A stretch of 64,000 bases of DNA. Source: Candidatus Omnitrophota bacterium. Lineage in GTDB: Bacteria; Omnitrophota; Omnitrophia; Omnitrophales; Aquincolibacteriaceae. A model generated the notes under the pieces. The model made no database searches. It was given only the letters and a program-made list of their open reading frames with translations, and was not told where the DNA came from. Below are positions 1-24,027 of the stretch, one piece after another. The stretch's first letter is position 1. Every line of letters begins with the position of its first letter. The DNA is taken from the NCBI GenBank assembly GCA_022709525.1, contig JAKLIQ010000002.1, positions 197,523 to 261,522 of the forward strand, written 5' to 3'. Position numbers and translations under genes: made by a program.

Positions 1-3000
1 TGATCGGTTTCGATCGCAAAATCTTTTTTTTCACCGGAATGATGAACGTACCAATTTGTGATCTTGAAAAGCTCAACGATCTCTTCTACTTCTTTACTGA
101 TCCATACCTCCGTCATTCCCAACCCCGACGAAGAAGGTCCATGCAAATCCATGACGAGACCGTAATTTTCCAACAGAACAATGAGCTTGAAGGCAGAATC
201 AAAAGCTCCTTCCATAAGCCTAATATCATCGGATTTTACCTCATAAAGACCTGCTCTCTCTTTAAATCTGGGTATGAAATCCTTCATGTATTTCGAGGCG
301 GCCACCAGTTCTGCTTCGATCTGGCGAACCAGTTCTTTGAGAGCTGGAAGGTCCCCTTTTTCAACATTCTTCACCAGATCTCGATGTAGCTTATCGATCT
401 TTTTAATGATGCCGAGCGATCGAATGCCTTTGGAAGATCCCGGCTCGGAAAAAAATCGTTCGTTGAATTCGTTCCCCAGATCTTCGAATCCCTCGATCAT
501 CAAGGCGTACCCCATTCCACCCGTTACAGCATTGCGAAATTTATGAAGGGCCTGCGCAAAGATCTCGGTTTGTAATTTCAAGGCCTGCCGCGCGACAATG
601 TCGCTGGCCATAACCGGAGGCGGAATGGGAAGAACCGTCTCCACGGAAGTACCTTCTCCTGGCTTGCTTGTTAAATGAATCTTTCCACCATGACGCGTTG
701 CGATCGTTCCGGCGATCCAAAGTCCGAGCCCCCTTCTTTTTGCCGGTTCCGTCGTCCAAAAAGCGTGAAAGACCTCGGTTTTATCCTTCTCCTCAATACC
801 TTTTCCGGTGTCTTGAATGGTCACGGAAAACCGGCGAGCATCTATTTTCCGAGTAGAAATGGATATCGTTCCCCCTTTTTCCGTGGCTTGTTCCGCATTC
901 AGAAGGATCTCGGAGAAAGCCCTTTCAAGCGATGTCCTGTCGCTACGGACCCATAACGGCTCGGCGCTATAATTCTCAACAATCCTAATACCCTGCCGCT
1001 CATGGAGCTTTCGTTGCTCGATGACGGTTTGGATAACGCTGTGAATATCAAGGATCTCCGCGGAATCGGAAAGTGGCTGAGAAAATCTTAAGATATCATC
1101 AACGATCCCCGAAGTTTTACGGATCTCGTCTGCAATATGATCGATAGTGATCGTCAAAGCCGCAATTTCTTTTTCATCCAATCTTTGCTGTTTGGTCGAA
1201 GCTTTTTTAACTTCATCCAGTTGGCCTTGCATCTGAGCAAGGCGGTTTTGGAAATTATGGGCCATCCCTTCAGCTAGACGGGCCACAGCGGCTGATTTCC
1301 TCGCCTCAGCCAGATCTCTTTGTGTTTTTTCAAGCTCCTGGAGCTCTTTTTTAAGTCTTTCTTCCAGCTCTTTACGGGCAGTAATGTCTTGTTCTTCCAT
1401 GACGTACCCGACCAAACGGGTCTCTTCGTCCCGGATTTCGGCAATCGTCACGCTCGCGAGATAAATATTCCCGTCTTTTTTCTTGTGATAAAGTTCGCCC
1501 TTCCATTCGCCGCTTCGCGCGACGGTGGCCCACAAGTTCCGATAAAAATTCCGGTCATTACTGTTCGGCTTGAGAATACTTACATGATTCCCTTTGACCT
1601 GGCCAAATTCGTAGCCAGTCAACATCGTAAAGGCGGGATTGACATATTCGATATTGCCATGGGAATCCATGATGATAATACTGGTCGCTGTTTGTTCGCG
1701 GATACGTATTGATCTTTCGACCTCATCCTTCAGGCGATAATTTTCATCTTCGATTTTTTGATAAGCTTTTTTCTCGGCACGGGCCTGAATGGCTTGATAA
1801 ATAAGCCAAAAAACAAACGGCGGTAATCCAAGTAATAAAGAAAGAGTAACGTCGTGAACGCTGGCCGTGACAACGCTGGTGATAAATACGGCCAAACCAA
1901 GCCAGGCGCCGCCAAATCCCTTCTTGATGGCTAGGATTTTCCTTTGATTTTGGAGTTCCGCCAGGGTGCCCGCCGGCTTAAGCTTGATGATATCCGTGGT
2001 GTCCGTGGCGCTAAAAAATCCGATCTTTCTGAAAAATTCCCGGGCCTGGCGCTCATAAGCAGCGCTCCTTTCTTTCGCCATTTTTAGAAACTCTTCCGCC
2101 TCCTGGGAGAACATCATAGAGTCTCCGTTAAGATACTCGGCGATCACCTTTTCGATCTGATCCTCGAATTTCCCGTAGAATATATCCGCCTTAAGATCCG
2201 GGATCCGGGCAAGGTGAAGAAGCGAGCTTTCATTAGTAAGAAAACTATCCCGGATCATAGCTGCGATCACATTCGTGGCAACTTGGGTGTGGTCTTTTTC
2301 CGATGGCTCTTCTCTTGCTTCCGAACGGTTTAGCTTCTCTGAAAGAGCGCGTTCGATAACTAATTTTTCAGTTCCCATAAAGGACAATTCGAGCGCTTTC
2401 TGAGAGTTCTGCGGATTTTTTTCTTTGACAACCATGGGGTTTTTAGCTCCGGCTTGCCCTAAATCGATCTCGAGTTCCACCAAAACTCCCAGAACCTGCG
2501 CCTTTCCTTTCACGACGTTTTCTTTCCGGTAAACATCTTGCATGGTGGAAATAGCCGTCAGTATCCGTTTAAAATCAAACGTTTCCACTTCTTGATGCAA
2601 GAGATCCTGCGCTTTTGCCAATATTTCATATTGCATCCCCCGATCGTCTTGAACGCCGGATTTTTCCATAAGCTTATAAATCCTGGATGTTTTATCGTTG
2701 GGATGCATTATGTAGTCCGCTATTTCATGAATCAGGCTCCGGTTTTTCATGATCGATTGATCGGCATTCCCCAGCTCCGGAGACCGGTCGCTTGGATAGC
2801 CCTTAAAATTCGGTTCTAAACCCAGGATCTTTTGCGCTACTTCTTCAACAACATTCCGCATTTCGGAGCGAGGGTGTTTTTCGAATCGTTCCTTTTGAAT
2901 TCTCTGGAGGCCTTCGGAAACCGCGGATGAAACTCCCATAGCGCTGAATAAAAACCCTTTCATCATATCGCTTTGTTCGGCCTGCTTTGCTTTTTCTCTC

Positions 3001-6000
3001 GCGAAAACCTCATTCAAAGCTTTGGCGATCTTTTCCTCAACGTCCCCAAGCTCTTCCGGATTTCTCTCCGCGATAAAATGGAGCATTTCCACAATGCGAG
3101 TCCGTATCGCCCAACTATCGGTTTGGGGCAATAAAGCGAGAAGCTGATCGAATGTTTCTTGAGTAAGAATGGATTCGGAAGGGCCTTGCAAAATTCTTAA
3201 AACGCCTGCCAGACCGTCATCGTAGAACGTTTCTTCCTTTTGCGCTTCTTCCAAAAATCCTTCTTTGATCTCATCGAGCGTTCGTACTTCCGCGCGCAGG
3301 ACCTGACGGGCCTTCTCAACCAAATCATTCCCCGCTTCTTTCTCCAACGCTTTTCCATTCGACCGGATCTCTAAATAAACATATTGAATATTCGGGATTT
3401 TAGGCCTTCGATCGCCTGAATGAGCGTATCGAATCATGCGCGAATATTGCCGGAGGATCTCGATGCCTTGTTCCTTAAGCCAAGCGTCCACAATTTGTTC
3501 TGTATCCGGAGCGCTTTTAACCGCTATCAAAAGTTCAGTGTGATCCGCCACGGATGAAATGCCCGGCACAATGTCCGAAACGTTATAGATCTTGGATTGA
3601 GGATCACCTTTTTCTTGAGCAGATTTTTTTACCAGCTCCGACAAATCATCCGTGAGACGCCACAGTCTGTCTTCGCCGACGGTGGATGCCGCCATGTGCT
3701 CGGAAGGTAAACCGGCGAGACTTTTCGCTACTAAATTCCTTATGCTTTCTTTCCGGTTTTCTTCAACTAAGAGTCTCCGATTCAGATCCTCTCGCGCCCG
3801 GGCTTCCGGATCATCTTTGACGGGCATCAACTCTTCCCGACCGTGATTTTTTCTTTTATATTCTTCCTGTTGTCTTTTTTGCTGGACTGCATCCCAAATA
3901 GCGCGCCGGATCCGCTGCTGCTCTTTCTCTGAAAGGGCCTTCAGGGTCTTGAATTCCAGCGTGAAAAGAGAAGCGTAAACTTTGGCGCCTTTTGAATTTC
4001 GATAATTAGAATGAAGATAAGGATGCGAAACGACCAAAGGGGCTTGATCTGAAGGTTGCATGCTTTCTATAGCCTCGCCGATCGCTTTTTGAACGGCCTC
4101 ACCAAAGACGATCTCATGCTCATTGGCGGCGGCCACGACGATATCGACATACCCTTCCGGATCAACCAGAAAATCCACGAGAACGGTCCTGTCTTTATTG
4201 GCAGTTTTATCTTTAGGCGCGGTTTTGTCCTCTACCCTCTCTAGCATGGAGCTAACAATTTGATAGAACTTTTCCCGCTCTTGATAGTTGTCTGGAAATC
4301 CGGAATGGTTGATATCTTCAGGAAAATAACGCGAAGGAAGAATGGGGGTAAAATCCGTCGTTCCCCAACGCCTGGATTGGTCAGTATAAACTTTCGCTAA
4401 AAGCTGCTCCGGATCGTTTTGATGCGTTTCGCTTAGTCGCGTCTCAGACCTCAAAATATTCGATTTTTCCGCTCCTGCCCGCATTTCACCGCGCATTTGA
4501 GAATGGTAAGCAAATTGCGCGGGGTTATTTCTATTCAAGATTCTCATTAGGCGATAATAGTTCGCCGCGGGAGGCACATATCTGGCTTCGGGAAAGAATT
4601 GGTTGAAAGCGTTGGTCTTACCGCCGCTTGCCAAACGCGCTTGGACCTTTTTAACAACGCCTGTCGGACCGATATTATTCGCGGCAAAAAGAAATTTGAC
4701 CCACTCAGGTGAACGGGCAAATTGTGCGCCCAAGCCCAGGAAACCTTCCGCGCCAAAATCTTCGACAAGTTCTTGAATCTTTCTTGTAACCTCGGCGGAA
4801 TGCCCTGAAAAAATCAATGCTTCATAACGGATATTGATCTCGGGATCCAGAAGAAGCCGCGTCATTTCATCCCGATCTTTTTTACTATAAAGATTAAAAC
4901 CCTTCTTTGAAGTTCTAAATAGGTTCCTTCTAAGTGCTTCATCCAAAAAATTCTTACTGAAAGCGGTCTTTAAATTGATCTGGCAAATTCCGATGTCCGG
5001 ATAACTATCCCGGCCCTTGTTGGGGCTTATGGCCTGCGCATCAAAATTACTGGTCTCACGAAGAATAACCGTGAGAAGCATTTCAAGAGGAATGTCATTC
5101 TCACGGGCAGCCTGAATAAAAGTTCCCTTTGGAACACCGCTTTTTTTGGAAAACTGCTGTAAAAGATCCTCGGGAGTTATGTTGGAGAGAAACTCGATCT
5201 TTTTTTCAATGCTTATGCTTGGATCGTATCCAAAAAGATTTTTAAAAATGCGGTAATTCTGGTCGTTATCCATTGATGAAAGAACCTGACGAAGGGAGTG
5301 CTCGATATCCTTGGAACCTTTGGCGACCGCGGGTGTCTGGGCTTTTGGTGATGCGGGAGATGCGACTTCAAAATATTCGGGAGCACTACGAAAATTGTTA
5401 CCAACCTGGGAAACCTCAGCAGGCGGATCTTCTTTAGGCGACATATCTGCCAGCCGCTGTTTAAATGATTCCAATAAATAAGGGTAAGCCCAAAGGGTTG
5501 GGGGCAGCAATGCTAGCTCGGTCCAAAAAATGATCTTTATTGACCTGACAAGCCGCGCAATGCCAGCCCTAAGACCACCCTGCGAAGCCCGCGATTCTGA
5601 GCGAATGACAGCTAACTCTTTCGCATCCGTATCAAGCGAGAGTTCGGCACCTCCAATGATCCTGCCAAAACTTTCTTCGCTAATCGTAACGAGGGGAACG
5701 CCTAGATTTTTCGCCAGCGCCCTATTGTGATTTTCGATCTTACCGTCTGGGCTTACCACCACGATCGCTTTTGCCCCGAGATATCGTTCCGGAAAATCGG
5801 AAGGATAGAGAGTTTTTGTCACAACGATCTTATCCTGATAAGCATGCGACTCTGTTTTTTCTCCGGAAAGATTTCGCAGCAGCCTGAAGGTAATATCAAC
5901 AACATCAATAGCTTTATCTTGTAAGTCGGCGATTGCCGTTTTCTGAAACATTTCTGAAAATTTTTTCCCCGTTTCTAAAAGAGCTTGCTTCAAGTCCATG

Positions 6001-9000: not shown

Positions 9001-12000
9001 CGATATTCTTTAAAAAAAGCCTGAAAGGTCTTCTCATCATCGGTCGGCAGCCATTCAACGGTCTGACCCAAAAGCTCATAGTGCCTTCTGTAAAATTTCA
9101 AGAAATCATTCACAAAGGAGGGGTGCAGAATATTCTGCTTCAACTTTTTATCTTTTTGGTATTCACGAAAGACGTCGCGAATGCTTTTAAGAAAATCAAA
9201 ACGCCGGAGAAGAAGCAGGTCCTCCTCGCGAGACTCCAGGAGTTCCTGGTCCTTTTGACCAATAAAATCCTTGATGCGATAATGGCGGATGATCCTTTCT
9301 AGCTCATCGCGGGTCATCTCATCTTTCGGATCAAGGGCTAATCGCTCTCTCAAGGCTCTTAGCTCTTCACTTTCATCTTGCCATAACAGCTTCACGATCA
9401 GGCGCTTCAAAAAGTTGAATTCCTCAAAAGATCCTTCCCCTTTAACCGGATCGATATTGAGACGGTAAAAAGCGTTGTCGAAACCTGCTTTTTGGTACCG
9501 CGACTGCCATTCCTCAAGCACAACCAAAATACTGCTGACTTTCCTAAAAGCATCGGAGGCTTTTTTGGAGGCCCGCTGATCCGCATCTCCGACAAGATGC
9601 TCCAAAAAGGAAAAATCGAAAGAGCTGTCGATATGCCTGGAAACCAACTTAGCATGTGCGATCTTATTAGGAGACATGCTCAAGGTAAGTGTTAAATGAT
9701 TACCAAAACGTTTTTTCAGAAATTTTGAAAAAAGTATGAATTTATCATGAGAGGCGACTTCACCGCAAAAACTTAAACCTACGTTTCTTCCTGTTCTTAA
9801 ATTTAGATCCGCAATGGTTGAAGCGATCTTCAAATAAAGTTCAACGTTGTTCGGATCCAGCCTTTCAATCCAGGGCTGCGCCCAGGCATAGTCGCGATTT
9901 GCATGAACCGAAACACCCGTCTGCTCCAAAAGGAATTTCTCCAAAAGTTTCATTTCTAAATCATTTGTTCCCACGCTAATAAATTTGACGAACGGTTTTC
10001 CATGCCTTTGAAAATTAAGGATTTTTTCGAGCTCCTGGACCGCCTGGGGAGTTTCGACCATAGCGCCATAAGAGATCGTCTCAACGATCTGAGAAACCAT
10101 TTCCTTGGGTTCCTGCGTCCCGCGCTCTTTCAAAACTTGGCTAGCAACCACTTCGGCCTGCTCTAATATTTCGTTGCTAATGAATTCGATATCCGCAAGG
10201 CCGTCAATTTGAGGAAACATGAGTTTGAGACGAGGGGTCTGCCCCTGACGGGATTTCAACAGTTGTTCCTGAACGATAATCAGCGCCGCAACTTGCTGGG
10301 TGAGAATTTCTTTCCCGAGAGGGGTGCGATAGAAATTAAACCCCGAATACTCTTCCGTGAATGCGTTCCAATCCTCCGCCGCATACCCAAAAACTTTGAA
10401 TAGGACATCAAAGAGATCGGTGTTTTTATCCGGCCAAAGATCGAGTGTGCGAAACACTTGGTCTTTGTCGACAAGAGACGGATTATCCAGCTGCGCAAAG
10501 TAGGATTGTTCGAGATGAAGACGGAACAAATCTAGAGACTTTTTGAGACGATCCGGAACCCTGGATAAAATAGCGGTTGATCGCCCAATGGTGTTGTGTA
10601 ATTCGACCAACGAAGGATCGACCTCCAAATGGTTGACGGGTTCGATTGAATATAGTTTCTCAAGGTAAGACCCGAATGTTGCTATGTTGGAATTGAACAA
10701 TTCCGGATGGTCTTTGGAATCGAAAAAATTAAGCACGAAATCGACAAGCCAATCGTCATTTTGAGACGTTTCAACCTTTTTAAGATTGTAATATTTTTCG
10801 AGTTTTTTCTGGACCGAGAGAATGATTTTTTTTACGGCGGCACGACGATTTCTTGGGACCGATGAAATCTTCGCCAGTTCCCTGATTGCGTCCATGAGGA
10901 GCTTTATGACCGTGGAAGTATCCGACGATTCAAAATGATAAGCTCTCTCTAAATACTCCAGCAAAGATTGGACGGCCCTTTGAAGGGCTTGTGTTGATTT
11001 TATTTCTAGCGCCAATGTGGTCGCAATATCTTCGACCATTTTTGTGATAGCTTTGTCAACCTCAGAACGGGTTAGCCCTATCCCTTCTGCTTTTGATTCG
11101 ATAACGCTTTGAGTTTCACCAACAAAAGTATTGGCAAAAAAATTCAGATTGGAATCTTTAATGTGTGCGCTTCCTTTCTCCGCAATCCGCATCAGCTGAT
11201 CCCCGCGTTCTTTTTCTATGGCTCCCTGAATCTCTTTTTTACCGGGATGGAGCAGAAAATATCCTTGAATCCCCTCTTCGCCCAGCGTTGCGGAGACAAT
11301 GACTTCATCCCCCGCACTCAGCTTTTGAAACAATTTTTCGTTTTCATCATCAGGCGAGATCACCAGAACCGGAGGAGGATTCGGATATTGCTGCAACGCT
11401 ACCACCCAATGGGTTGAAAGGTTAGCTTGAGTGGTCACAATGGCCTTAATTTGCGAGCCGAATTGCGTCATAATATCTTCGACTTTGTCGACCCCCATCG
11501 TTTCGGAGATATAAAGAACAACGCCTCCAGAAGATTTTTCCGGCATGGCGATTTGAAAAGTTTTTGCCTTCCCATGTCTGGAAACGAGCTCGGCGATCAG
11601 GCGGTGAGCTATGCTAATGTATTCTTCCCAGTCCTGGACCATGCCAGGCAAACCTTTCGAACGATAAAGCTCTTGCTGATCATAAAGGCCCGCACTTTTT
11701 TTTGAGAGAACATCCTCATAAAAAATGGCGGCAAAATTCTTCTTCTCTTTTTTCATACGTTCTAGCGTTTCTTTCTTGCTTTCCTCAGATTTAAAATAAG
11801 CTTGAGCCGGCTTTAAAACGGTTTGTTGGGCCATCATCTTCATGCTGTCTTTGGCTGCATAATCTAAATAAATCCGTCGGGTCCCTTCTAGGGCGTCTCT
11901 AAGCTTTGGATCCGTGACTGCATTATTTTCAAGCGCCTTTCGTATCTCGTTAAATATCCCGGCCCGTTTTGAAAAGGAGCCCGGCTTAACTGCCTCCTTT

Positions 12001-15000
12001 AGATCGATCAGGGATAAATGCGCAAATGCTTCGGCAGCTCTTTCTGTTTCCTCCATTTTTCTTTCGAGATCCTGAATCCTTTTTTCGTAGTCATTTACAA
12101 AATCGTTCAGGGCGTTTTCGGCGAACTCAAGCTCCTCCTCAGCAGAACCGGAAAATCCCAATTGCTGCAACGCATACATTTTGATTTGATTCATAATGTG
12201 ATCCAGCGATGGTTTCCGCTTCGGATCTTGAATCCCTTTTGTGCGCAACCGCCGCAAAAGACCCCCAATTAAATTGATAGTCCTTGTTTTCCTGTTAAGA
12301 AGTAGATCTATTTTTATTTCGCGCTTAAGCTCATCAGCTTCCTTTTGAAGCAATTTTTGAAGGTCTCGAGAAATATTCTCTGAAGTTTTTTCAATAATAG
12401 AATTTAGCTTTTGAGCTTCTCCTATAAAGCTTTCCTTAGGCGCCTGGTAAAGGATCTCTTCAGGGAGCGCGTTAGCGAAAACAGCGAGAGGAGCAAAGAC
12501 GCTCGCTTCCGCCGTGCTCTCTCCGACAATCCGCATTTCGGAGCGAGGGTCGCCGGGCTTTTTTTGTTCAGTGGAAAGATCTAAAACTCCTTTTTCAACA
12601 ATAACCTGCTTAGTATTTTGCTCAAGGAGGTCTTGGACGGTATCGCTGGAATCACCCAAGATCGGAGTTAAAAGACGGCGGATGCGTTTCATATCGAAGC
12701 GCCCGTCTTTTTCGGCTTCCGCAAGGAGATTGTTCGCGATGACTTTCAATTCCAGGAAGCTCAACTTTTTTGGATCATACTCCCCAACAGTGTCTAAAAG
12801 ATTTGCCACGAGCTCATCGAACTTGGATGCCTGGCCGTTTTTTGGCACTGGCTGAACTTTTTCCATCTCGACGAGTTTCTGGAGATTTTTTTCCAAAGCC
12901 ACCCGGTCAAAGGATTCTTCTGACGTTTTTGTAACCGCTTCGTTCTTCCCTGCTTCCTCCCGCGTTTCGGAGCGAGCTGCGGGCAATTGTCCGTATTCAA
13001 CATGAATGATATCGCTTAGGTTGGCGGTCTGCGGCTCGCTTGAGGATAAAACCGCATGAATCGTCAATGCATCCGCTTTTCCAAAAGTAATGTCCGTAAC
13101 GACAGGTTCGATGCCTTGGCCATAAGCCACAAAAGTCGCGAAAGAGCTGTCGCCTGTTAGCGCTTCCGGCATGACCGCGGCGTTTTGAGAAGTTATGTTC
13201 AAGGGAGAGGTCCGGGTTTGAAATCGAAGCGTCTTGTCTTGGTCTGCGCGAAGCGGTTCCGCGCTCAAAACTTTTGAAAGCACGGGATGAGCGGCGACCG
13301 CTTGTTTGACATGAGCGGCCACTTGATCCGGGGAGTTTTGATATTTTTCAAAAAGCGCCGGAGCGGCGGTCTCAAGTAATTGCCTGAACAGAATGGCTTC
13401 TTGTTTGGTGCTGAAAGGATTTTTGGTTTTGAAATAAGGGCCAAGGTCCGCATTTGCGCCCGTCATGACCTTTTGATAACGTTCCCCGCCATCGACGCCA
13501 CGGATCCTGGGCGACACAACCGCATAACCGATCCCTTCTTCCTGGAGGAGCTTTTCGAGCCCTTCGGTATGAAAGCCGCCGGTCACTAACACGATAACCC
13601 GGGATTTGGGACTCGGGACTCGGGACTCGTTTTGGTTTCTTGTTTCACGAGTCCCGAGGTGCGAGGTATGAGTCCCCGTTGAAAACGCCAAGGCGTTTTC
13701 AAGCATGGCTCGATCACGCTTAGTCGAAGTCGCGTAGAACTGATAGGCCTGCGCAATAAAAGGCTTTATATTCGGGATATTTTTCGCCAGAACTTCCAGA
13801 TCGCCGCGCCGGTCAAGCGCTTGTTCATATTCGGGACGCGCCAACTCAAGATGGAGAAGTTTTGTGAGGAGGGAGAGATCATTCAAACGCTCGATGAATT
13901 GTTTTTCCGTGTCCGTCTTGGCCGATCTTTCCAGGATATTCTCCTCCAAAGAAGCCATTTCATCCAAAAGCCCCGTGATCTCGACTTCGGAACGCAAGAC
14001 AAGGACCTTCCAGCTTTTCATGAAATGAGAATATGCCTTAAGATCCACCGGATGTTTTTGGATAAAAAGCATCAGGCCTTCAAGAAGTTTCCGGGGATAG
14101 AGGGCGCGCTCGACCGGATAGGAGAACTGTTCCCCCTCCGCCTCCGGCAAAAGCCCCTGCTCGCGGCCGTATGTTTCGAGCGCTTTAACGAATTTCAGCT
14201 CCGACTTTTCTTTCGCGGAAACCCGCAAGGCGTCCAGAACATCAGCCCATTCCCTTTTGGCGGCCTCCTGATCGAAACCTTTTTGGGCCTCCTCGGTCAG
14301 AAGAACGCGGATCAGGTTCGGAAAACGCAATTGCTCGATCGTGTCGGTCAGATCGATCTGAAGAACTTTGAGGGTCTGGGACTTTAGATAGCGGATATAA
14401 GCGACAAGATCCGGATCCCCCGACGCCTGCGACATATTGAACTTACCTTCTTTGCGACGCTCCCGCTCCTTGAGAAAATCACGCAGGTCGGGATTCAGGG
14501 CCTTGGAAGATTCTTTTTCGAGTTGAGCGCGCAGGGGATTCAGAAGCGTCCCGATCTCGTCGCGGCGGAATAAAAGATCGCGAAAGGTCTTCAGGTTCTC
14601 GCGGTAGAGTTCGGCGTCTTCAACGCCTTCCACTCGGACTTGAGACTTGAGACTTGAGACTTCAGACACTAGTCTCTGGTCACTAGTCTCCGGTCTGTTC
14701 TGAAACTTGTCCCAAAGATACAATTCCACGCCGTTCAATTCGCCTTTTTGGCGGAGATCGTCAACAACGGCCCGGTTCGCTTCGGGGAATTCAGAGAAAA
14801 ATTCGAAATATTCGGGATGAAGACGGCCTTTGGCCCCTTCAAGGCCGATGGTCAGATCGGGGAATTTTTCTTCCAGGTAACGGAGAATACCCGCAATATT
14901 CTGTTCCGCTTCGGGATTGGAGTGGGCGTCCTGGATCTGGATCACAAACGGTTTTCCGGCCACCGCCCGGCCCGGCTCCCAGGAACGGGTCACCAAACCC

Positions 15001-15191
15001 AGTTCGGCGGGCAACGCCGAAAGATGGGTCTGAAACTCATTTTGTGTCCCGCGCTTGCTTAGGAATTGAAAAGCATCCTCATAGGCAAAGGCGCCGGACG
15101 GATCGATCGTGATCGTGGTTACCGTGAATGCGACGGCCACGAATAAAGAAATTCCCCTAAGCAGGCAGGATCTGGTGTTAGAAACTGTCAT
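1..15191 (-). CDS. Giant multidomain protein (>5063 aa, C-terminus beyond window start): signal peptide, PEP-utilising His and TIM-barrel domains, HPr-like domain, GlnD-like ACT domain, SLT-like segment, TM helices, PAS-HisKA-HATPase_c sensor kinase module
   Basis: ATG at 15189-15191 (minus) is preceded by an in-frame TAA three codons upstream. Hand translation in that frame (codon top coordinate = 2 mod 3) runs stop-free to position 3. The ORF track lists no minus-strand ORF in this frame between 1 and 15200 and would omit an ORF that lacks an in-window stop; every minus ORF it lists here is in another frame. Recognised motifs: MTVSNTRSCLLRGISLFVAVAFTV...AFA signal peptide; AIVTTQANLSTHWVVALQQYPNPPPVLVI (phospho-His swivel domain); KLMFPQIDG / SYGAMVETP / FISVGTNDLEMK / LSFCGEVASHD (PEP-utilising TIM barrel); GTSLHARPATILVKLAERYSG...MNSIMQLLM (HPr); RHSDVLIVETSDREGLLAAISTILYEKG (ACT); GICQINLKTA (SLT-like); GMAHNFQNRL plus DTGKGIEE...GLGLWIAGTIATRHGG (HisKA/HATPase_c). 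Confidence 0.85.
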   Translation of the reverse strand, partial: MTVSNTRSCLLRGISLFVAVAFTVTTITIDPSGAFAYEDAFQFLSKRGTQNEFQTHLSALPAELGLVTRSWEPGRAVAGKPFVIQIQDAHSNPEAEQNIAGILRYLEEKFPDLTIGLEGAKGRLHPEYFEFFSEFPEANRAVVDDLRQKGELNGVELYLWDKFQNRPETSDQRLVSEVSSLKSQVRVEGVEDAELYRENLKTFRDLLFRRDEIGTLLNPLRAQLEKESSKALNPDLRDFLKERERRKEGKFNMSQASGDPDLVAYIRYLKSQTLKVLQIDLTDTIEQLRFPNLIRVLLTEEAQKGFDQEAAKREWADVLDALRVSAKEKSELKFVKALETYGREQGLLPEAEGEQFSYPVERALYPRKLLEGLMLFIQKHPVDLKAYSHFMKSWKVLVLRSEVEITGLLDEMASLEENILERSAKTDTEKQFIERLNDLSLLTKLLHLELARPEYEQALDRRGDLEVLAKNIPNIKPFIAQAYQFYATSTKRDRAMLENALAFSTGTHTSHLGTRETRNQNESRVPSPKSRVIVLVTGGFHTEGLEKLLQEEGIGYAVVSPRIRGVDGGERYQKVMTGANADLGPYFKTKNPFSTKQEAILFRQLLETAAPALFEKYQNSPDQVAAHVKQAVAAHPVLSKVLSAEPLRADQDKTLRFQTRTSPLNITSQNAAVMPEALTGDSSFATFVAYGQGIEPVVTDITFGKADALTIHAVLSSSEPQTANLSDIIHVEYGQLPAARSETREEAGKNEAVTKTSEESFDRVALEKNLQKLVEMEKVQPVPKNGQASKFDELVANLLDTVGEYDPKKLSFLELKVIANNLLAEAEKDGRFDMKRIRRLLTPILGDSSDTVQDLLEQNTKQVIVEKGVLDLSTEQKKPGDPRSEMRIVGESTAEASVFAPLAVFANALPEEILYQAPKESFIGEAQKLNSIIEKTSENISRDLQKLLQKEADELKREIKIDLLLNRKTRTINLIGGLLRRLRTKGIQDPKRKPSLDHIMNQIKMYALQQLGFSGSAEEELEFAENALNDFVNDYEKRIQDLERKMEETERAAEAFAHLSLIDLKEAVKPGSFSKRAGIFNEIRKALENNAVTDPKLRDALEGTRRIYLDYAAKDSMKMMAQQTVLKPAQAYFKSEESKKETLERMKKEKKNFAAIFYEDVLSKKSAGLYDQQELYRSKGLPGMVQDWEEYISIAHRLIAELVSRHGKAKTFQIAMPEKSSGGVVLYISETMGVDKVEDIMTQFGSQIKAIVTTQANLSTHWVVALQQYPNPPPVLVISPDDENEKLFQKLSAGDEVIVSATLGEEGIQGYFLLHPGKKEIQGAIEKERGDQLMRIAEKGSAHIKDSNLNFFANTFVGETQSVIESKAEGIGLTRSEVDKAITKMVEDIATTLALEIKSTQALQRAVQSLLEYLERAYHFESSDTSTVIKLLMDAIRELAKISSVPRNRRAAVKKIILSVQKKLEKYYNLKKVETSQNDDWLVDFVLNFFDSKDHPELFNSNIATFGSYLEKLYSIEPVNHLEVDPSLVELHNTIGRSTAILSRVPDRLKKSLDLFRLHLEQSYFAQLDNPSLVDKDQVFRTLDLWPDKNTDLFDVLFKVFGYAAEDWNAFTEEYSGFNFYRTPLGKEILTQQVAALIIVQEQLLKSRQGQTPRLKLMFPQIDGLADIEFISNEILEQAEVVASQVLKERGTQEPKEMVSQIVETISYGAMVETPQAVQELEKILNFQRHGKPFVKFISVGTNDLEMKLLEKFLLEQTGVSVHANRDYAWAQPWIERLDPNNVELYLKIASTIADLNLRTGRNVGLSFCGEVASHDKFILFSKFLKKRFGNHLTLTLSMSPNKIAHAKLVSRHIDSSFDFSFLEHLVGDADQRASKKASDAFRKVSSILVVLEEWQSRYQKAGFDNAFYRLNIDPVKGEGSFEEFNFLKRLIVKLLWQDESEELRALRERLALDPKDEMTRDELERIIRHYRIKDFIGQKDQELLESREEDLLLLRRFDFLKSIRDVFREYQKDKKLKQNILHPSFVNDFLKFYRRHYELLGQTVEWLPTDDEKTFQAFFKEYREATTSVFDDIVLMSRRLLLNQFPPKYTPYDLGERVQRAGFASDQIELVTTEGFTFRRNVGWGYGRDHELHIKNAVELFTGRPELIFDVFALTVLYGVRISEKTQQAILQTKQQLDLLMERIRSGDPEVKDESTHLKNVFQEIFQSKNPASYALWRMHGLDVMDIFIPTYKTMRAFFEAGQRYSVDLQTMRALEILDTLEGKGNFFFLIPKQVMHEVAEHESMILTLRYAIFMDGIVRARIGSGASERSIRELVKETLYPVGIDSKTLDDIVWLLMSQREISKRDLLSQEQIDSLWGRFSANPGLTKERWTLLYLMTFSIRASLAEPEKMPLLIRLGQQSPLLYITQLFTQGYVMQRSMQTPNALDSLDLFRTLHEKRLDEVAWKWLEHRNSGELFEKYLEQTSQGNIPDLKTQIAKMLGIQEKKQDEKIFTSIFEKCIRLISYSYIRALDIQEIVTTLVFYIHLQLLKENKVADTVLTLFRKLPDNAREGYEILMGYPEYKPELVPIFSRVLYENGFILEEAVPHFGDEGAVIRFMGYFRHERGDELAVETKVKKIQEDLQKIYHSQGSGRTDFFASLFGVRHRPFDNTKRLYGNKLKLHKDYENWQGVETVVRFLSPSELFEDIPFKQEKIGRHSDVLIVETSDREGLLAAISTILYEKGDGVGIKDFIFDDVKATSPRGIFLVDKDGNALDKELKEKLSAYLEKKLAEHSDKPEAAPSRLARVLTSPGETGLIVVEETQSGAESVLSAPDATAEESEDVVIGEKTEEAPSVEAAEEEKIILETFYEIRGTSLHARPATILVKLAERYSGLSPRLKTKDQDVSMNSIMQLLMTESVRGSGVSIYVSIPKDSETGEKEAKEFFRTLNLEKNDSGYLFGDEELGSGDDKGFLKFIKEVRRSELRDGEKLSLEQVIVAGKVDGIAQVDSRKTLLFTAGSAQSPKTFQSDFNNVFDVSKNQIEALRERWILLVKSDQTSIVFESHVLLLSAIKEAVVPNLEKNMDLKQALLETGKKFSEMFQKTAIADLQDKAIDVVDITFRLLRNLSGEKTESHAYQDKIVVTKTLYPSDFPERYLGAKAIVVVSPDGKIENHNRALAKNLGVPLVTISEESFGRIIGGAELSLDTDAKELAVIRSESRASQGGLRAGIARLVRSIKIIFWTELALLPPTLWAYPYLLESFKQRLADMSPKEDPPAEVSQVGNNFRSAPEYFEVASPASPKAQTPAVAKGSKDIEHSLRQVLSSMDNDQNYRIFKNLFGYDPSISIEKKIEFLSNITPEDLLQQFSKKSGVPKGTFIQAARENDIPLEMLLTVILRETSNFDAQAISPNKGRDSYPDIGICQINLKTAFSKNFLDEALRRNLFRTSKKGFNLYSKKDRDEMTRLLLDPEINIRYEALIFSGHSAEVTRKIQELVEDFGAEGFLGLGAQFARSPEWVKFLFAANNIGPTGVVKKVQARLASGGKTNAFNQFFPEARYVPPAANYYRLMRILNRNNPAQFAYHSQMRGEMRAGAEKSNILRSETRLSETHQNDPEQLLAKVYTDQSRRWGTTDFTPILPSRYFPEDINHSGFPDNYQEREKFYQIVSSMLERVEDKTAPKDKTANKDRTVLVDFLVDPEGYVDIVVAAANEHEIVFGEAVQKAIGEAIESMQPSDQAPLVVSHPYLHSNYRNSKGAKVYASLFTLEFKTLKALSEKEQQRIRRAIWDAVQQKRQQEEYKRKNHGREELMPVKDDPEARAREDLNRRLLVEENRKESIRNLVAKSLAGLPSEHMAASTVGEDRLWRLTDDLSELVKKSAQEKGDPQSKIYNVSDIVPGISSVADHTELLIAVKSAPDTEQIVDAWLKEQGIEILRQYSRMIRYAHSGDRRPKIPNIQYVYLEIRSNGKALEKEAGNDLVEKARQVLRAEVRTLDEIKEGFLEEAQKEETFYDDGLAGVLRILQGPSESILTQETFDQLLALLPQTDSWAIRTRIVEMLHFIAERNPEELGDVEEKIAKALNEVFAREKAKQAEQSDMMKGFLFSAMGVSSAVSEGLQRIQKERFEKHPRSEMRNVVEEVAQKILGLEPNFKGYPSDRSPELGNADQSIMKNRSLIHEIADYIMHPNDKTSRIYKLMEKSGVQDDRGMQYEILAKAQDLLHQEVETFDFKRILTAISTMQDVYRKENVVKGKAQVLGVLVELEIDLGQAGAKNPMVVKEKNPQNSQKALELSFMGTEKLVIERALSEKLNRSEAREEPSEKDHTQVATNVIAAMIRDSFLTNESSLLHLARIPDLKADIFYGKFEDQIEKVIAEYLNGDSMMFSQEAEEFLKMAKERSAAYERQAREFFRKIGFFSATDTTDIIKLKPAGTLAELQNQRKILAIKKGFGGAWLGLAVFITSVVTASVHDVTLSLLLGLPPFVFWLIYQAIQARAEKKAYQKIEDENYRLKDEVERSIRIREQTATSIIIMDSHGNIEYVNPAFTMLTGYEFGQVKGNHVSILKPNSNDRNFYRNLWATVARSGEWKGELYHKKKDGNIYLASVTIAEIRDEETRLVGYVMEEQDITARKELEERLKKELQELEKTQRDLAEARKSAAVARLAEGMAHNFQNRLAQMQGQLDEVKKASTKQQRLDEKEIAALTITIDHIADEIRKTSGIVDDILRFSQPLSDSAEILDIHSVIQTVIEQRKLHERQGIRIVENYSAEPLWVRSDRTSLERAFSEILLNAEQATEKGGTISISTRKIDARRFSVTIQDTGKGIEEKDKTEVFHAFWTTEPAKRRGLGLWIAGTIATRHGGKIHLTSKPGEGTSVETVLPIPPPVMASDIVARQALKLQTEIFAQALHKFRNAVTGGMGYALMIEGFEDLGNEFNERFFSEPGSSKGIRSLGIIKKIDKLHRDLVKNVEKGDLPALKELVRQIEAELVAASKYMKDFIPRFKERAGLYEVKSDDIRLMEGAFDSAFKLIVLLENYGLVMDLHGPSSSGLGMTEVWISKEVEEIVELFKITNWYVHHSGEKKDFAIETD
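620..1700 (-). other. PAS + HisKA + HATPase_c sensor histidine kinase module near the C-terminal end of the giant protein, preceded by 2 TM helices (~1800-1960)
   Basis: PAS: IIIMDSHGNIEYVNPAFTMLTGYEF...GEWKGELYHKKKDGNIYLASVTIAEIRDEE. H-box GMAHNFQN. N, G1 and G2 boxes LLNAEQATEKGG, DTGKGIE, GLGLWIA. A second H-box-like segment LHKFRNAVTGGMGYALMI lies further towards the window edge. Confidence 0.7.
6400..6650 (-). other. HPr-like phosphocarrier domain embedded in giant protein
   Basis: GTSLHARPATILVKLAERYSGLSPRLKTKDQDVSMNSIMQLLMTESVRGSGVSIYVSIPKDSE has the GxHARPAxxLV active-site His and the KSIMG-like Ser region of HPr. Confidence 0.55.
9740..10500 (-). other. PEP-utilising enzyme TIM-barrel domain embedded in giant protein
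   Basis: FISVGTNDLEMKLL (antisense of 9960-9990) and LSFCGEVASHDKFILF (antisense of 9745-9790) match the S(I)GTNDL and CGE(L)AgD signatures. The upstream KLMFPQIDG and SYGAMVETP segments match the remaining conserved blocks. Confidence 0.6.
11190..11460 (-). other. PEP-utilising enzyme mobile (phosphohistidine) domain embedded in giant protein
   Basis: AIVTTQANLSTHWVVALQQYPNPPPVLVISPDD...GDEVIVSATLGEEGIQGYF aligns to the GxxTxxGGxTSHAAIxAR...PxVVG consensus of enzyme I / PPDK / PEP synthase. Confidence 0.55.
13604..13676. repeat. Palindromic repeat element (family A copy 1), in frame inside giant CDS; 7-nt unit GGGACTC x3 plus inverted arm CGAGTCCCGAGG
   Basis: gggactcgggactcgggactcgttttggtttcttgtttcacgagtcccgagg. 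Homologous to 29493-29570 and 46716-46790. Confidence 0.7.
14634..14712. repeat. Palindromic repeat element (family A copy 2), in frame inside giant CDS; 7-nt unit ACTTGAG x3(+1 degenerate), CACTAGTCTC x2, GTCTCCGGT core
   Basis: ggacttgagacttgagacttgagacttcagacactagtctctggtcactagtctccggtctgttctgaaacttgtc. Shares the GTCTCCGGT...TTGTTTCAC-like core with 46741-46790. Confidence 0.65.
15084..15191 (-). other. Predicted signal peptide of the giant protein (basic N-region, hydrophobic core, AFA-YE cleavage-like site)
   Basis: Translation MTVSNTRSCLLRGISLFVAVAFTVTTITIDPSGAFA. Confidence 0.5.
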
Positions 15192-17008: not shown

Positions 17009-17009
17009 T

Positions 17010-18071
17010 TTATTTTTGCTCCATGTTCGCCGCTGAGGCGGCATCGGTGCCTTTTTCATAAAAAAGTTTTCGATATTCGCCATAGCCCTCTTTTTCCAGA
17101 TCCTGTTTGGGAATAAAACGAAGCGCGGCGGAGTTAATGCAAAAACGAAGTCCCGTCGGCTGAGGACCATCGGAAAACACATGCCCCAAATGAGAGTCCG
17201 CGTGCTTGCTTCGAACTTCCACCCGGGGGGATGAAAGGCTCTGGTCCTCTTTTTCAACTATATTCGCCGGTTCGAGAGGCTTGGTAAAACTTGGCCATCC
17301 GGTCCCTGAATCAAACTTATCGGAAGAGCTGAACAGGGGTTCGCCCGAAACGATATCGACGTAGATACCTTCACGGTGATTATTCCAGTACGGATTATCG
17401 AACGGCTTTTCCGTAGCCCCTTTTTGGGTCACGTCGCATTGCAGGGGGGTCAGCCTTTTTTTCAACTCTTGCTCGGATATTTTTTTATAGAAATGTCCCT
17501 TCGCGGGAGCATCTATCTCATTTGCTGTATCGCCCCATATTTTTGCAAGGTAAGCATCGCGCCCGGAACCTTTCCGGTAGGATGCGTACTGCGCAGGGTT
17601 GAGTCCGCAGAAATTCTGGTGATATTTTTCAGCCTGGTAAAATTTTGAGGCCTTCATGATACCCGTAACGATAGGTTGGGGATAGACGCCGGACGCATCC
17701 ATTCTGGCCTTGGATTGCTCGGCGAGATGTTTTTGCTCTTCATTGTGATAAAAAATAACGGTCCGGTATTGCGGCCCCCGATCCGCAAATTGCCCGCCGG
17801 CATCCGTCGGATCGATCTGTTTCCAGAAAACGTCTAGAAGTTCCGGATAAGTGATCCTGGCCGGATCATAGGTGGTCTCGACAACTTCAATATAGCCTTT
17901 TTGGGCATAGTCTTCATAAGTCGGCTTCTCCCCGGTTCCGCCCATATAGCCGGAAGTGACTTCCAAAACACCGGGAAGTTTTCGAAAAGCGCATTCGACG
18001 CACCAAAAACAGCCGCCGGCCCATGTGGCTTTTTCACGTTGTTTCGATGCGCAAAAAGCGAAATTTGTCAT
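17010..18071 (-). CDS. msrAB: Bifunctional peptide-methionine sulfoxide reductase MsrA/MsrB
   Basis: N-terminal GCFWC (MsrA active site). C-terminal [17 protein letters not shown] with CxxC pairs (MsrB). A possible N-terminal extension to ~18128 is discussed in findings. Confidence 0.85.
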
Positions 18072-18175
18072 AAGAAAAATAAGCGCGATCGCTCCGAAGG
18101 TTAAAAATATTCTTCTAATGAGACGTTCCCTTTCTCACGACCGTTTTTGCCCGAAGCATTTTTCTCGACGATGGT

Positions 18176-18619: not shown

Positions 18620-18668
18620 TCCAATTCTCCTTTTTTAATATTGAGTCGCAAATTCCCTAAAAATATTT

Positions 18669-19160: not shown

Positions 19161-19163
19161 GGT

Positions 19164-20024: not shown

Positions 20025-20036
20025 TTTCTATCCTGA

Positions 20037-21737: not shown

Positions 21738-21829
21738 CTTCTTTGCTTTATTTCTGAAAATGAAGCATGTAGAATGCCAGCAGCATCATACCTTTTTAAA
21801 TCAACATTGCAACCTCGGGATCTAAAAAT

Positions 21830-23023: not shown

Positions 23024-23106
23024 ATCCGGAAGAAGAAGGTGTGTTGAATCACGGTTTAAAACTATTAAAAAGACGCGGACTTAACGCGAGTAAGGATGGG
23101 TCTTCT

Positions 23107-23268: not shown

Positions 23269-23286
23269 GAAGACCGGATTGTCTTC

Positions 23287-24000: not shown

Positions 24001-24027
24001 AATTCGTTCTCCAAAAAAACTGCCTGG

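Follow-up and report, generated by a model that had tools for sequence, protein, structure and literature searches.

The analysis confirmed that the minus-strand frame starting with ATG 15189-15191 of the 64-kb window (the whole stretch of DNA analysed) is a genuine gene. It comes from an uncultivated bacterium of the Omnitrophota, and its product is a member of an Omnitrophota family of giant proteins whose architecture is uncharacterised but not unique. The gene is probably a "head-modules-tail" mosaic, in which a common N-terminal head is followed by autonomous modules, among them a phosphoenolpyruvate (PEP) relay and a separate kinase, with putative cleavage at a pentapeptide motif found at the module junctions. 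Giant genes of Omnitrophota are known, but their functions are not. The junction motif marks both module boundaries and recombination breakpoints and is thus a candidate site of cutting or joining. The head that defines the family has a fold of hydrolase type that also occurs in Tiki/TraB/RRSP proteases. A conserved cassette, in which an Enzyme-I-like unit that uses PEP is linked to a GlnD-like ACT sensor and to HPr, points to a regulatory relay of the phosphotransferase system (PTS) type, none being described in this phylum in the literature searched.

Reality and extent of the gene

The frame runs for 5,063 codons without a stop to window base 3, while the second-longest stop-free run in the six frames of the window is 643 codons; at a stop rate of ~3/64 per codon, we calculate the chance of such an open run as ~e^-240. 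The ATG at 15191 is supported as the start by the segment LRGISLFVA.AFTVTT, which is kept in relatives. In frame, the relative synonymous codon usage of the giant gene follows that of 20 neighbouring genes with r = 0.75; the two other frames give 0.30 and -0.14. GC3 is 0.49 in the giant gene and 0.64 in its neighbours. Sequence 100% identical to the window was found in the JGI assembly 3300010429 (Ga0116241_10000096, 262 kb) over the 21 kb compared and in the ENA assembly ERZ27257456 (k141_620878, 62.5 kb) over the 17 kb compared, the identity covering the first 8.2 kb of the giant gene. The called product is 6,021 aa in the former, from a later GTG start, and 6,038 aa in the latter, from the same ATG as here, which leaves about 975 codons past window base 1. 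The preliminary description had therefore been right about a single ORF of more than 15 kb and about a protein running past position 1, but the length that it left open comes down to ~6 kaa (thousand amino acids), the missing part not being tens of thousands of codons. Exact 50-mer searches for the C-terminal continuation in the genome and metagenome contig sets gave no match, and a protein-based scan of metagenome contigs with aa 4401-5063 returned distant kinases only.

It is exceedingly unlikely that the frame is an artefact, i.e., a chimeric assembly or a decayed pseudogene open by luck. What speaks for it is that contigs from metagenomes can, in general, be chimeric, and that GC3 is below that of the neighbours, but the two identical assemblies agree in product length, the region adjoining the giant gene is 99.9-100% identical in four more assemblies, domain order and catalytic residues are kept across dozens of relatives at 25-50% identity, codon usage is frame-specific, and an open frame by chance has negligible probability. 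Tandem-repeat expansion was ruled out as the source of the length: the gene has only two short repeats, located in one loop.

The ribosomal protein S2 that the window encodes has 100% identity to its counterpart in a MAG named "Candidatus Omnitrophota bacterium", and the named S2 matches listed are from Omnitrophota/Omnitrophica save one labelled only "bacterium", in agreement with the earlier suggestion of a lineage known for giant genes. The genes around the giant gene are housekeeping genes; type II secretion, sugar import and EII permease genes were not found among them.

Modules of the giant protein

The features of the in-window part of the protein are listed in Table 1. The head, which is common to 84 proteins, has the shared alpha/beta fold with the conserved His/Glu/His site that is the mark of the Tiki/TraB/ChaN/EreA superfamily; H90 (IQDAH), E118 (LEGA) and H541 (GGFH) are invariant. 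The giant's own head reached no family threshold in a Pfam scan, and a PDB sequence search with aa 1-1250 gave no match.

Table 1. Features of the giant gene and its product in the window (aa, codon numbers from the ATG at 15191).
Feature	aa	Window positions	Strand	Basis
In-window part of the gene, codons 1-5063 of 6,038	1-5063	3..15191	-	stop-free frame, product lengths, codon usage
N-terminal signal/anchor: R7, R12, hydrophobic aa 9-31, AFA/YE	1-37	15081..15191	-	hydropathy peak 1.94
Head domain: Tiki/TraB/ChaN/EreA-like alpha/beta core with large helical insert	40-640	13272..15074	-	
Junction RSETR, closes head module M1	740-744	12960..12974	-	
Junction RSEMR, closes small module M2 (aa 745-882)	883-887	12531..12545	-	
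M3: swivel-type phosphohistidine domain 1, His1261 in LSTHWVV	1225-1338	11178..11519	-	homologues
M3: PEP-binding TIM barrel, Enzyme I/PPDK type	1360-1860	9612..11114	-	PF02896
M3: GlnD-like helical/HD region	1880-2560	7512..9554	-	TIGR01693, NF003467
M3: two ACT-like domains	~2560-2780	6852..7514	-	alignment to P0141/P0139
M3: HPr domain, His2859 and Arg2861 (SLHARPAT), Ser2891 (NSIMQLL)	2850-2935	6387..6644	-	PF00381
Junction RSELR, closes M3	2963-2967	6291..6305	-	
M4: EIN-type HPr-binding helical subdomain and swivel domain 2	2981-3194	5610..6251	-	TIGR01417, NF008478
Junction RSESR, then signal-like segment ASQGGLRAGIARLVRSIKIIFWTELALLPPTLWAYPYLL	3197-3201	5589..5603	-	sequence
M5: SLT-like (lytic transglycosylase-like) segment	3358-3515	4647..5120	-	PF01464, borderline
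Junction RSETR	3581-3585	4437..4451	-	
Modules M6-M7	3586-4288	2328..4436	-	no Pfam, NCBIfam or PDB match
RAEVR inside M6-M7	3966	3282-3296	-	
RSEMR inside M6-M7	4108	2856-2870	-	
Junction RSEAR	4289-4293	2313..2327	-	
M8: membrane hairpin, two adjacent hydrophobic helices	4427-4470	1782..1913	-	hydropathy 1.68, 1.75
M8: sensor kinase core, PAS aa 4497-4608, DHp His4645 (GMAHNFQ), HATPase_c aa 4751-4857		621..1703	-	
Continuation past the kinase, runs off the window	4860-5063	3..614	-	no family match

Module M3 carries the cassette. Its swivel domain 1 has no Pfam/HMM match of its own and was recognised as homologous to the same segment in the relatives P0001, P0123 and others, with His1261 kept in 80% or more of 19 family members; an HPr-binding helical subdomain was not recognised upstream of it. 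The barrel matches PF02896 (E 6e-11, 42.5 bits; gathering score 22.8) and TIGR01417 (E 2e-7, 29.9 bits) and carries a ~200-aa insert after its first strand. Residues R1375, R1581, D1584, K1589, E1713, N1743, D1744 and C1809, which we take to be the equivalents of the catalytic residues of E. coli EI, are at least 80% conserved in the 19 family members. A PDB sequence search with aa 1151-2850 gave no match.

No part of the cassette is conserved more widely than the GlnD-like region, for which profile A1 gave 73 matches, 32 of them at E<=1e-10 and ~35 being proteins of 1.7-7.8 kaa. Its similarity to TIGR01693 and NF003467 (E 1.5e-5 and 3.9e-5) extends in the case of TIGR01693 over model positions 321-471 only, with 23.4 bits against a cut-off of 519. 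The succession of an HD and two ACT domains is preserved in homologues, and P0141 retains a Pfam HD match, while in the giant the HD motif reads as degenerate (RYSVDLQT at aa 2245, AIFMDGI at aa 2293) and Pfam/HMM scans matched no nucleotidyltransferase domain. The substitution of the metal-binding His and of the HD residues makes the region a sensor or scaffold and not an enzyme. A Pfam scan of the giant gave no ACT match, but the two ACT-like segments align to segments of P0141 and P0139 that score ACT at E 1e-12 and 1e-11, and the ACT-typical beta-alpha start "DVLIVETSDREGLLAAIS" can be read from the sequence. The HPr domain scores 30.6-32.7 bits with PF00381 (gathering score 23), matches PDB HPr chains at E 5e-4 and reaches 25.9 with TIGR01003, below the cut-off of 47.9; its Ser2891 is Ser46-like.

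Module M4 matches TIGR01417 (positions 39-226, E 1.3e-19, 70.1 bits) and is also matched by the DhaM model NF008478 (positions 256-471, E 1.3e-10), PDB 3eza, an EIN structure (E 5.6e-5), and PF00391 (E 0.021). The second swivel His is His3155 in IENHNRA; a TIM barrel does not follow swivel 2. In M5, the segment reading RETS, GICQI and AANNIGP scores 17.9-21.3 bits with PF01464 against a gathering score of 21.3, over profile positions 3-50 of 117 only, and had no match in a PDB sequence search. The sole relative found for M6-M7 is P0122, whose block there also takes in the final ~36 residues of M5.

In M8, PAS_9 (E 3e-17, 63.2 bits) and HATPase_c (E 3.6e-20, 72.9-75.4 bits) are both above threshold, and aa 4497-4857 match the AtoS-type model NF008468 at E 1.7e-49, below its equivalog cut-off. 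The DHp helix, with His4645 in GMAHNFQNRL, scores only 15.7 bits with HisKA (E 0.016; gathering score 26.9).

The preliminary description, which had read these domains from a hand translation, is borne out for the PEP-utilising swivel domain and TIM barrel and for HPr. Its GlnD-type ACT domain holds directly for the GlnD-like similarity and through homologues for ACT, its lytic transglycosylase stays borderline, and its PAS-HisKA-HATPase_c kinase is firm in PAS and HATPase_c with a weak HisKA. A second H-box-like segment was not upheld, having no HisKA match and only a 32-aa similarity to DHp (E 0.007), and the EIN-type domain and second swivel after HPr had been missing from its list.

In the explanation that we favour, M3 and M4 would form a PEP-driven His relay (PEP to His1261 to HPr His2859, the last in exchange with His3155), which a metabolite bound to the ACT domains may tune, much as in the nitrogen PTS and in multiphosphoryl proteins of the DhaM type. 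M8, the kinase, would be a separate, ATP-driven branch.

Junction motif, exchange of modules and proposed processing

The modules are bracketed by the pentapeptide R-S/A-E-(L/M/V/A/I)-R. Strict RSExR occurs seven times in the giant against 0.12 expected (maximum of two in 2,000 shuffles), and an unbiased pentamer scan of 380,000 aa of family sequence found RSE.R 389 times against 9.2 expected. The motif is absent from the other ORFs of the window (13.7 kaa) and from the interior of 49 HPr or REC domains; it lies a median of 4-22 aa beyond HPr/REC domain ends and precedes 28 of the 29 tails. Synonymous codons differ at the motif copies, so that the constraint acts on the peptide and the junctions are unlikely to be recombination sites at the DNA level. 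A literature search for the pentapeptide strings returned noise and no relevant match.

The family comprises at least 114 large proteins, nearly all the named ones being from Omnitrophota, with the head in 105, the tail in 29 and both in 24. The preliminary description could not match the architecture to any characterised family, which holds, but the protein is no orphan. The giant combines the N-terminal head with at least three R[SA]ExR junctions, in the family's layout of conserved signal/anchor and head followed by variable cargo modules. The closer relatives, including the closest, P0122, end in a conserved C-terminal domain (tail) of ~290 aa; the giant itself was read to codon 5063. A scan of genome contigs with the cassette profile found the contig of P0001 alone, and the taxonomic spread of the family therefore rests on source names.

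P0122 shares two blocks with the giant, one of 98% identity over aa 18-2967 and one of 71% over aa 3550-4293, both stopping on the last Arg of a motif. In place of M4-M5 and the kinase, P0122 carries unrelated modules. Blocks that relatives share at 55% identity or more have 93 internal ends, of which 30% fall within 5 aa of a motif end (2.2% at random) and 68% within 30 aa (12% at random). Shared blocks thus have their borders at the motif, and each module is a unit of exchange.

We read the giant as a polyprotein-like train of autonomous modules that are presumably cut apart at the motif. Cutting in or close to the motif would most likely come first, after which the modules would act autonomously, each in its own compartment. 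The conserved motif, the unit-wise exchange and a topology inconsistent for an uncut chain make it doubtful that the modules work as the single polypeptide first described. That said, a signalling megaprotein left uncut, with the PTS-like relay and the kinase wired in cis on one membrane-anchored chain and the motif as a conserved flexible linker or docking element, has its own evidence and is an unlikely, though not far-fetched, reading. All modules share one stop-free frame; siblings repeatedly join the EI-like/HPr cassette to receiver (REC) domains or HATPase_c, which suggests functional coupling (two of them carry the JGI label "PTS system EI component/CheY-like"); and DhaM, whose model is matched here, and FruB-type proteins are fused multi-step His relays. 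The predicted topology, however, is incompatible with it: a Sec-type N-terminal signal is followed by ~4,400 aa with no strong hydrophobic segment that contain PEP-dependent domains, next by an SLT-like module that would need export, and finally by a two-helix hairpin and an ATP-dependent kinase. Signal-like segments stand directly after motifs inside relatives, and the swap of M4-M5 and the kinase in P0122, a closely related allele 98% identical over the first ~2,950 aa, argues against obligatory cis wiring of kinase and relay.

In favour of processing, internal hydrophobic or signal-like segments are enriched within the 20 aa after a motif, although the enrichment is modest, about threefold (12%, 13/111, against 3.8% with randomised motif positions). 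Among these segments are AxA-type signals and one whose end, MMPGC, is lipobox-like; a regular expression for internal lipoprotein signals gave too few cases for use.

The cleavage part of our reading can be taken further, more tentatively: the motif is possibly a dedicated processing signal and the giant genes of this family polyproteins, "operons written as one ORF", whose modules are cut apart (perhaps co-translationally), targeted separately to cytoplasm, membrane and periplasm, and reshuffled between strains at the junctions. The motif could also be merely a conserved inter-module linker. The head, if exported as its signal suggests, could not cut cytoplasmic junctions. Processing at the motif, if it occurs, would largely dissolve the puzzles of domain fusion in these proteins, since cytoplasmic enzymes predicted "outside" and sensors fused to unrelated enzymes would be separate products, and giant genes would be a new way to organise and exchange gene sets. 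Such processing would also imply an unknown protease, self-cleavage or a ribosomal mechanism that recognises the pentapeptide.

Comparison with known systems

Among catalogued systems the closest in kind are the giant proteins of the same phylum. For the "Archaeovorins", SLT, PPDK and HATPase_c domains were listed and cell-wall degradation was proposed (West-Roberts et al. 2023, bioRxiv 10.1101/2023.11.21.568195), and a "multi-enzyme" class of giants with a signal-transduction module has been described (Nielsen & Lui 2026, bioRxiv 10.64898/2026.06.07.730766). The present protein shares with these a very long ORF, a signal peptide with few transmembrane helices, tiling of unrelated enzyme and signalling domains (HATPase_c, REC, PPDK-type and SLT are reported there), poorly conserved sequence and an implausible predicted localisation of some domains. 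It differs in size, its 6,021/6,038 aa standing against thresholds of >=10 kaa (Nielsen & Lui) and >30 kaa (West-Roberts). Text searches of the two papers found no HPr, "PEP-utili", PF02896, PF00381, Tiki/TraB/ChaN-like head or inter-module motif, no recombination terms in West-Roberts 2023 and no mosaic term in Nielsen & Lui 2026.

That the present protein is itself a surface protein of the Archaeovorin type, mostly extracellular and serving prey attachment and cell-wall digestion, a role put forward for Omnitrophota giants at large, with the SLT-like segment as effector, is very improbable. The taxon, the N-terminal signal, the SLT-like segment and the domains reported by West-Roberts et al. 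would all fit, but most of the cargo is made up of phosphotransfer and sensor domains that depend on PEP or ATP and hence on substrates from the cytoplasm, the SLT match is borderline, Pfam scans found no adhesin, HEAT, dockerin, glycosyl-hydrolase or SecA-like domain, the neighbouring genes are of the housekeeping kind described above, and 6 kaa is far below the size of the proteins studied there.

Modules M3 and M4 resemble PTS EI (PtsI), HPr and multiphosphoryl-transfer proteins in a swivel His, in a PEP barrel with catalytic residues and in the HPr His15/Arg17/Ser46 motifs, and they resemble DhaM in the EIN-type HPr-binding domain straight after HPr. In EI-Ntr (PtsP) the sensor fused to EI is a GAF domain, where the giant's counterpart is GlnD-like/ACT. 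Unlike PTS Enzyme I, whose TIGR01417 cut-off is 341.7 bits (best score here 70), the giant has a split and permuted order, with swivel 1 and the barrel (aa 1225-1860) in M3 and the HPr-binding subdomain with swivel 2 in a separate module after HPr; it lacks a contiguous EIN and barrel unit of ~570 aa, and the barrel insert, the absence of EII permease genes nearby and the 6-kaa host protein set it further apart. To GlnD (PII uridylyltransferase) the similarity is weak but specific to the central/HD part, and the giant differs in having no detected nucleotidyltransferase domain. In the Tiki/TraB/ChaN/EreA superfamily (PF04187 and relatives), the head stands out by the ~300-aa helical insert that splits its core; it may act as a protease, as an esterase or in ligand binding.

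The MARTX toxins of Vibrio offer an analogy of design, not of membership: Pfam scans of the 5,063 aa found neither RTX/glycine-rich repeats nor an inositol-hexakisphosphate-activated cysteine protease domain, the cargo is of housekeeping-type enzymes and signalling domains instead of toxins, and the junction is a defined pentapeptide with a putative role in processing. West-Roberts et al. (2023, bioRxiv 10.1101/2023.11.21.568195) stated that the cleavage points of the Omnitrophota giants are unknown; the processing reading, if true, would supply such missing cleavage points for bacterial giant proteins.

Reading frame and genomic setting

The minus-strand frame that opens at ATG 15189-15191 runs for 5,063 codons without a stop to the window edge, as first described, and the longest other stop-free run in all frames of the whole window is 643 codons. 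Synonymous codon usage in this frame correlates with that of 20 neighbouring genes at r = 0.75, versus 0.30 and -0.14 for the remaining two frames. GC3 is 0.49 in the giant gene (window 3-15191) versus 0.64 in the 20 neighbours (window 17010-63845), a low value that weak expression or imported modules could account for; solely in the first 500 codons, encoding the N-terminal head, is GC3 near the neighbours' level (0.60). Tandem-repeat structure is absent from the gene.

Ribosomal protein S2 (window 31605-32492) is 100% identical to a protein of a "Candidatus Omnitrophota bacterium" MAG, and the named entries in its match list are Omnitrophota or Omnitrophica, except one with the bare label "bacterium". 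Four short public contigs match window 24-41 kb at 99.9-100% identity. Two long contigs, Ga0116241_10000096 (262 kb; JGI 3300010429) and k141_620878 (62.5 kb; ENA ERZ27257456), were located via the MsrAB protein adjoining the giant gene, and neither differs from the window across the fetched 21 kb and 17 kb (100% identity). An assembly artefact is, for practical purposes, excluded. On the long contigs the product is called at 6,021 aa, from a start 17 codons downstream, and at 6,038 aa, from the same ATG, so that about 975 further codons lie past window base 1; no Pfam family additional to those within the window is recorded for the full-length product. The ATG at 15191 is supported as the start, since "LRGISLFVA.AFTVTT" is kept in relatives.

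Elsewhere the window codes for the usual housekeeping functions of an anaerobe (ALDH, MsrAB, rubrerythrins, 2-oxoacid:ferredoxin oxidoreductase, flavodiiron proteins, rpsB-tsf-pyrH-frr, suf genes, BipA, ilvD, nadA, hcp), and its 64 kb contain neither a PTS permease nor an HPr kinase nor a secretion system. Two oxidative-stress clusters, typical of an anaerobe, were observed: one at window 17010-24636 (MsrAB, two rubrerythrin/ferritin-like genes, a flavodiiron protein with rubredoxin, NAD(P)H-flavin reductases) and one at 56756-63845 (a second flavodiiron protein, ferritin, hybrid-cluster protein). A PAS-HisKA-HATPase_c-GGDEF hybrid is encoded at window 36884-38419 (minus strand), and its neighbour in the public annotation of identical sequence is a single-domain response regulator. 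Together they form an ordinary two-component/c-di-GMP pair with no relation to the giant gene. At window 15494-17257 (minus strand) the mechanical ORF, of 587 aa from a TTG start, is too long for the aldehyde dehydrogenase gene that it covers and runs into MsrAB; that gene has 504 aa in public calls on identical sequence.

Domain anatomy and a possible phosphoryl route

Features of the giant protein over aa 1-5063, the C-terminal 975 aa lying outside the window (residue n = window 15191-3(n-1))
Feature	Residues (aa)	Strand	Basis
Sec-type signal or anchor	1-37	-	hydropathy
Conserved head	40-640	-	family alignment
Swivel-type phosphohistidine domain 1, His1261	1225-1338	-	family alignment, without HMM match
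PEP-binding TIM barrel, ~200-aa insert	1360-1860	-	PF02896, E 6e-11
GlnD-like (central/HD part) region	~1880-2560	-	E about 1e-5
Two ACT-like domains	~2560-2780	-	homologous segments of relatives P0141 and P0139 score as ACT and HD
HPr	2850-2935	-	"SLHARPAT" (His2859, Arg2861), Ser46-like Ser2891
EIN-type HPr-binding subdomain and second swivel (His3155)	2981-3194	-	Enzyme I positions 39-226, E 1e-19
SLT-like segment, borderline	3358-3515	-	weak SLT profile match
Two adjacent hydrophobic helices	4427-4470	-	hydropathy
PAS, putative DHp (His4645) and HATPase_c	4497-4857	-	AtoS-type match, E 2e-49

Most domains named in the preliminary description were recovered: the signal peptide, the PEP-utilising barrel, the HPr-like domain with its active-site His, the two transmembrane helices and the PAS and HATPase_c parts of the kinase, with a putative DHp between them. 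Its phosphohistidine swivel stands by family alignment and escapes HMM detection, its GlnD-type ACT part is seen through homologues and is unrecognisable in the giant alone, and its lytic-transglycosylase segment is borderline. The second H-box-like segment that it placed after the kinase found no support in family or self-similarity searches of aa 4860-5063, a stretch without an assigned domain, and family searches recognised no domain in aa 3586-4288. The Arg, Asp, Lys, Glu, Asn-Asp and Cys positions of the barrel, which we take to be equivalents of E. coli EI residues, are kept in at least 80% of 19 relatives; the HD residues of the GlnD-like region are replaced in the giant. The EIN-type segment also matches the C-terminal part of DhaM, a protein in which a truncated EIN and an HPr-like domain serve as successive His carriers.

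Module M3 (swivel domain 1 through HPr) has the catalytic set of an Enzyme-I-like unit, and the phosphorylation motifs of its HPr are intact. In the proposed mechanism, His1261 on the M3 barrel would receive a phosphoryl group from PEP, which would then move to His2859 of HPr and onward to, or back from, His3155 of the next module, M4. The GlnD-like/ACT part may gate this flux in a metabolite-dependent manner, as the GAF domain does in EI-Ntr, and the PAS kinase would be a distinct, ATP-driven input. A surface "Archaeovorin" digesting prey wall would suit an Omnitrophota protein that has a signal and an SLT-like part; it is highly improbable, the PEP/ATP-dependent cargo and the gene neighbourhood both disagreeing with it.

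The conserved head has a Tiki/TraB/ChaN/EreA fold, whose members include metal-dependent proteases and esterases. Invariant in its alignment are His90 (IQDAH), Glu118-Gly119 (LEGA) and Gly-Gly-Phe-His541, and 6 of 33 heads match Pfam PF04187 (ChaN, Tiki superfamily). A GGGACTC-heptamer hairpin repeat lies in frame at window 13597-13670 (aa 506-534; RNA fold -35.5 kcal/mol), in a low-confidence head loop directly before GGFH; a kindred hairpin (-43.8 kcal/mol) occupies the spacer at window 29491-29570, between tRNA-Lys (29403-29476) and frr. An 18-mer of the repeat has 6 matches in the window versus 0.03 expected, and the repeat looks like a REP-type element tolerated within a coding loop. The head's other variable loop is encoded by a palindromic heptamer repeat, GAGACTT/AAGTCTC, at window 14637-14695 (aa ~166-185). 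In relatives these two loops are occupied by odd peptides of low complexity (GERGTGNGER, TRNPNESRAPSPESR, DGGWRMEDG), which suggests that in-frame insertions recur there.

Relatives, junction motif and module exchange

Judged from homology searches, the giant is no orphan. The first homologue, P0001, is an Omnitrophota "putative PEP-binding protein" of 27% identity; a profile built from aa 1860-2930 and P0001 matched at least 73 proteins (about 35 with lengths of 1.7-7.8 kaa) in a set of 1.84 billion representatives, and queries with the giant's unannotated parts added at least 84, all matched via the head. These counts are lower bounds, since the indexed 5.8-billion protein database returned none longer than 5,000 aa, nor the 6,021/6,038-aa product, which is present in the gene-position index. 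Named relatives, a minority of the database entries, are Omnitrophota or Omnitrophica, plus one Auribacterota and one Elusimicrobia. Among 114 family proteins the head is present in 105, a conserved ~290-aa domain at the extreme C-terminus (tail) in 29, and both in 24; fold comparison gave no specific structural neighbour for the tail, whose sequence closes with "...AIQ.Y..I..AA". Cargo domains vary (REC, PEP-utilizers_C, HPr, glycogen synthase, UDP-glucose dehydrogenase, PPDK, phosphoglucomutase and others), and two relatives carry the JGI label "PTS system EI component", one of them also "CheY-like". PTS-like and two-component modules co-occur repeatedly, as seen in the make-up of P0123 (PEP barrel, two HPr, four REC), P0001 (PEP barrel, HPr, REC) and P0139 (PEP barrel, ACT, HATPase_c).

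The pentapeptide RSExR was first noticed when the giant was set against its closest relative. It occurs seven times in the giant (aa 740, 883, 2963, 3197, 3581, 4108 and 4289), with RAEVR at aa 3966 in addition, versus 0.12 expected and a highest count of 2 in 2,000 shuffles. In an unbiased "abc.d" pentamer scan of 380,000 aa of family sequence, RSE.R was observed 389 times versus 9.2 expected, outranked only by the head's catalytic motifs, which occur once per protein. Position x is L, M, V, A or I in most copies, and the copies differ in synonymous codons, so the peptide rather than the DNA is under constraint. The motif has no copy in 13.7 kaa of other window ORFs and none inside the 49 HPr or REC domains examined, the nearest copies lying beyond the domain ends at median distances of 4-22 residues; it directly precedes 28 of 29 tails, and the median inter-motif segment is 290 aa.

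The closest relative, P0122, has 5,386 aa and is complete; it lies on a 21-kb contig of a Logan assembly from another sample. Its identity to the giant is 98% over aa 18-2967 and 71% over aa 3550-4293, with no relationship elsewhere, and both homology blocks stop exactly at the final Arg of a motif. P0122, whose C-terminus is the tail, has other modules where the giant has M4-M5 and the kinase module; by eye they include a receiver domain and a stretch that resembles heptosyltransferase-like segments seen elsewhere in the family. This points to a probable recent module replacement inside a near-identical backbone. Across the family, 93 internal ends of blocks of at least 55% identity were compared with motif ends: the distance is at most 5 aa for 30% of them (2.2% expected at random), at most 15 aa for 51% (6.4%) and at most 30 aa for 68% (12%). 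The giant gene is best read as a succession of autonomous modules bounded by a conserved peptide.

Whether the chain is also cut at these junctions is a more tentative matter: exchangeable, autonomous modules are rated much higher than processing, to which we give rather less than an even chance. An uncut chain would have an N-terminal export signal, 4,400 aa without a strong transmembrane segment and then the hairpin; since those 4,400 aa hold domains requiring the cytoplasm and others requiring the periplasm, this topology is inconsistent, which favours cutting. Module M5 starts straight after RSESR with a signal-like segment followed by the SLT-like domain, and in relatives hydrophobic segments starting within 20 aa after a motif are three times commoner than with randomised motif positions. 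They include one with a lipobox-like end ("...MMPGC") and AxA-type signal peptides, and the latter count for cutting because they function solely at a free N-terminus. Against cutting counts that an exported head could not reach cytoplasmic junctions. An uncut megaprotein, with kinase and relay wired in cis, is weakened by the inconsistent topology and by the P0122 allele, in which the kinase has been swapped out, and we consider it less likely than not.

Comparison with known giant proteins

Giant genes are, as the preliminary description stated, already known in Omnitrophota (West-Roberts et al. 2023, bioRxiv 10.1101/2023.11.21.568195; Seymour et al. 2023, PMC10066038; Nielsen & Lui 2026, bioRxiv 10.64898/2026.06.07.730766), where proteins of at least 10-30 kaa were studied, with SP+TM topologies, many tiled Pfam domains (HATPase_c, REC, PPDK, SLT) and implausible localisations. 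The catalogue of Nielsen & Lui 2026 comprises 916 proteins of at least 10 kaa. The present locus is a smaller representative of these genes. In text searches, HPr, PEP-utilizers_C, a Tiki/ChaN-like head and an inter-module motif were unmentioned in West-Roberts et al. 2023 and Nielsen & Lui 2026; recombination was absent as a term from the former and mosaic from the latter, and PTS or phosphotransferase from Seymour et al. 2023. According to West-Roberts et al. 2023, the analysis there was blocked by the lack of known cleavage points. What the giant exposes is a variant architecture of head, RSExR-delimited modules and tail, with a new cassette of EI-like, GlnD-like/ACT and HPr parts. MARTX toxins combine conserved ends, module shuffling and inter-module cleavage. 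Their defining features were not found in aa 1-5063 of the giant, but the design is alike: cleavage between modules, which in the giant we only infer, together with conserved ends and shuffled modules.
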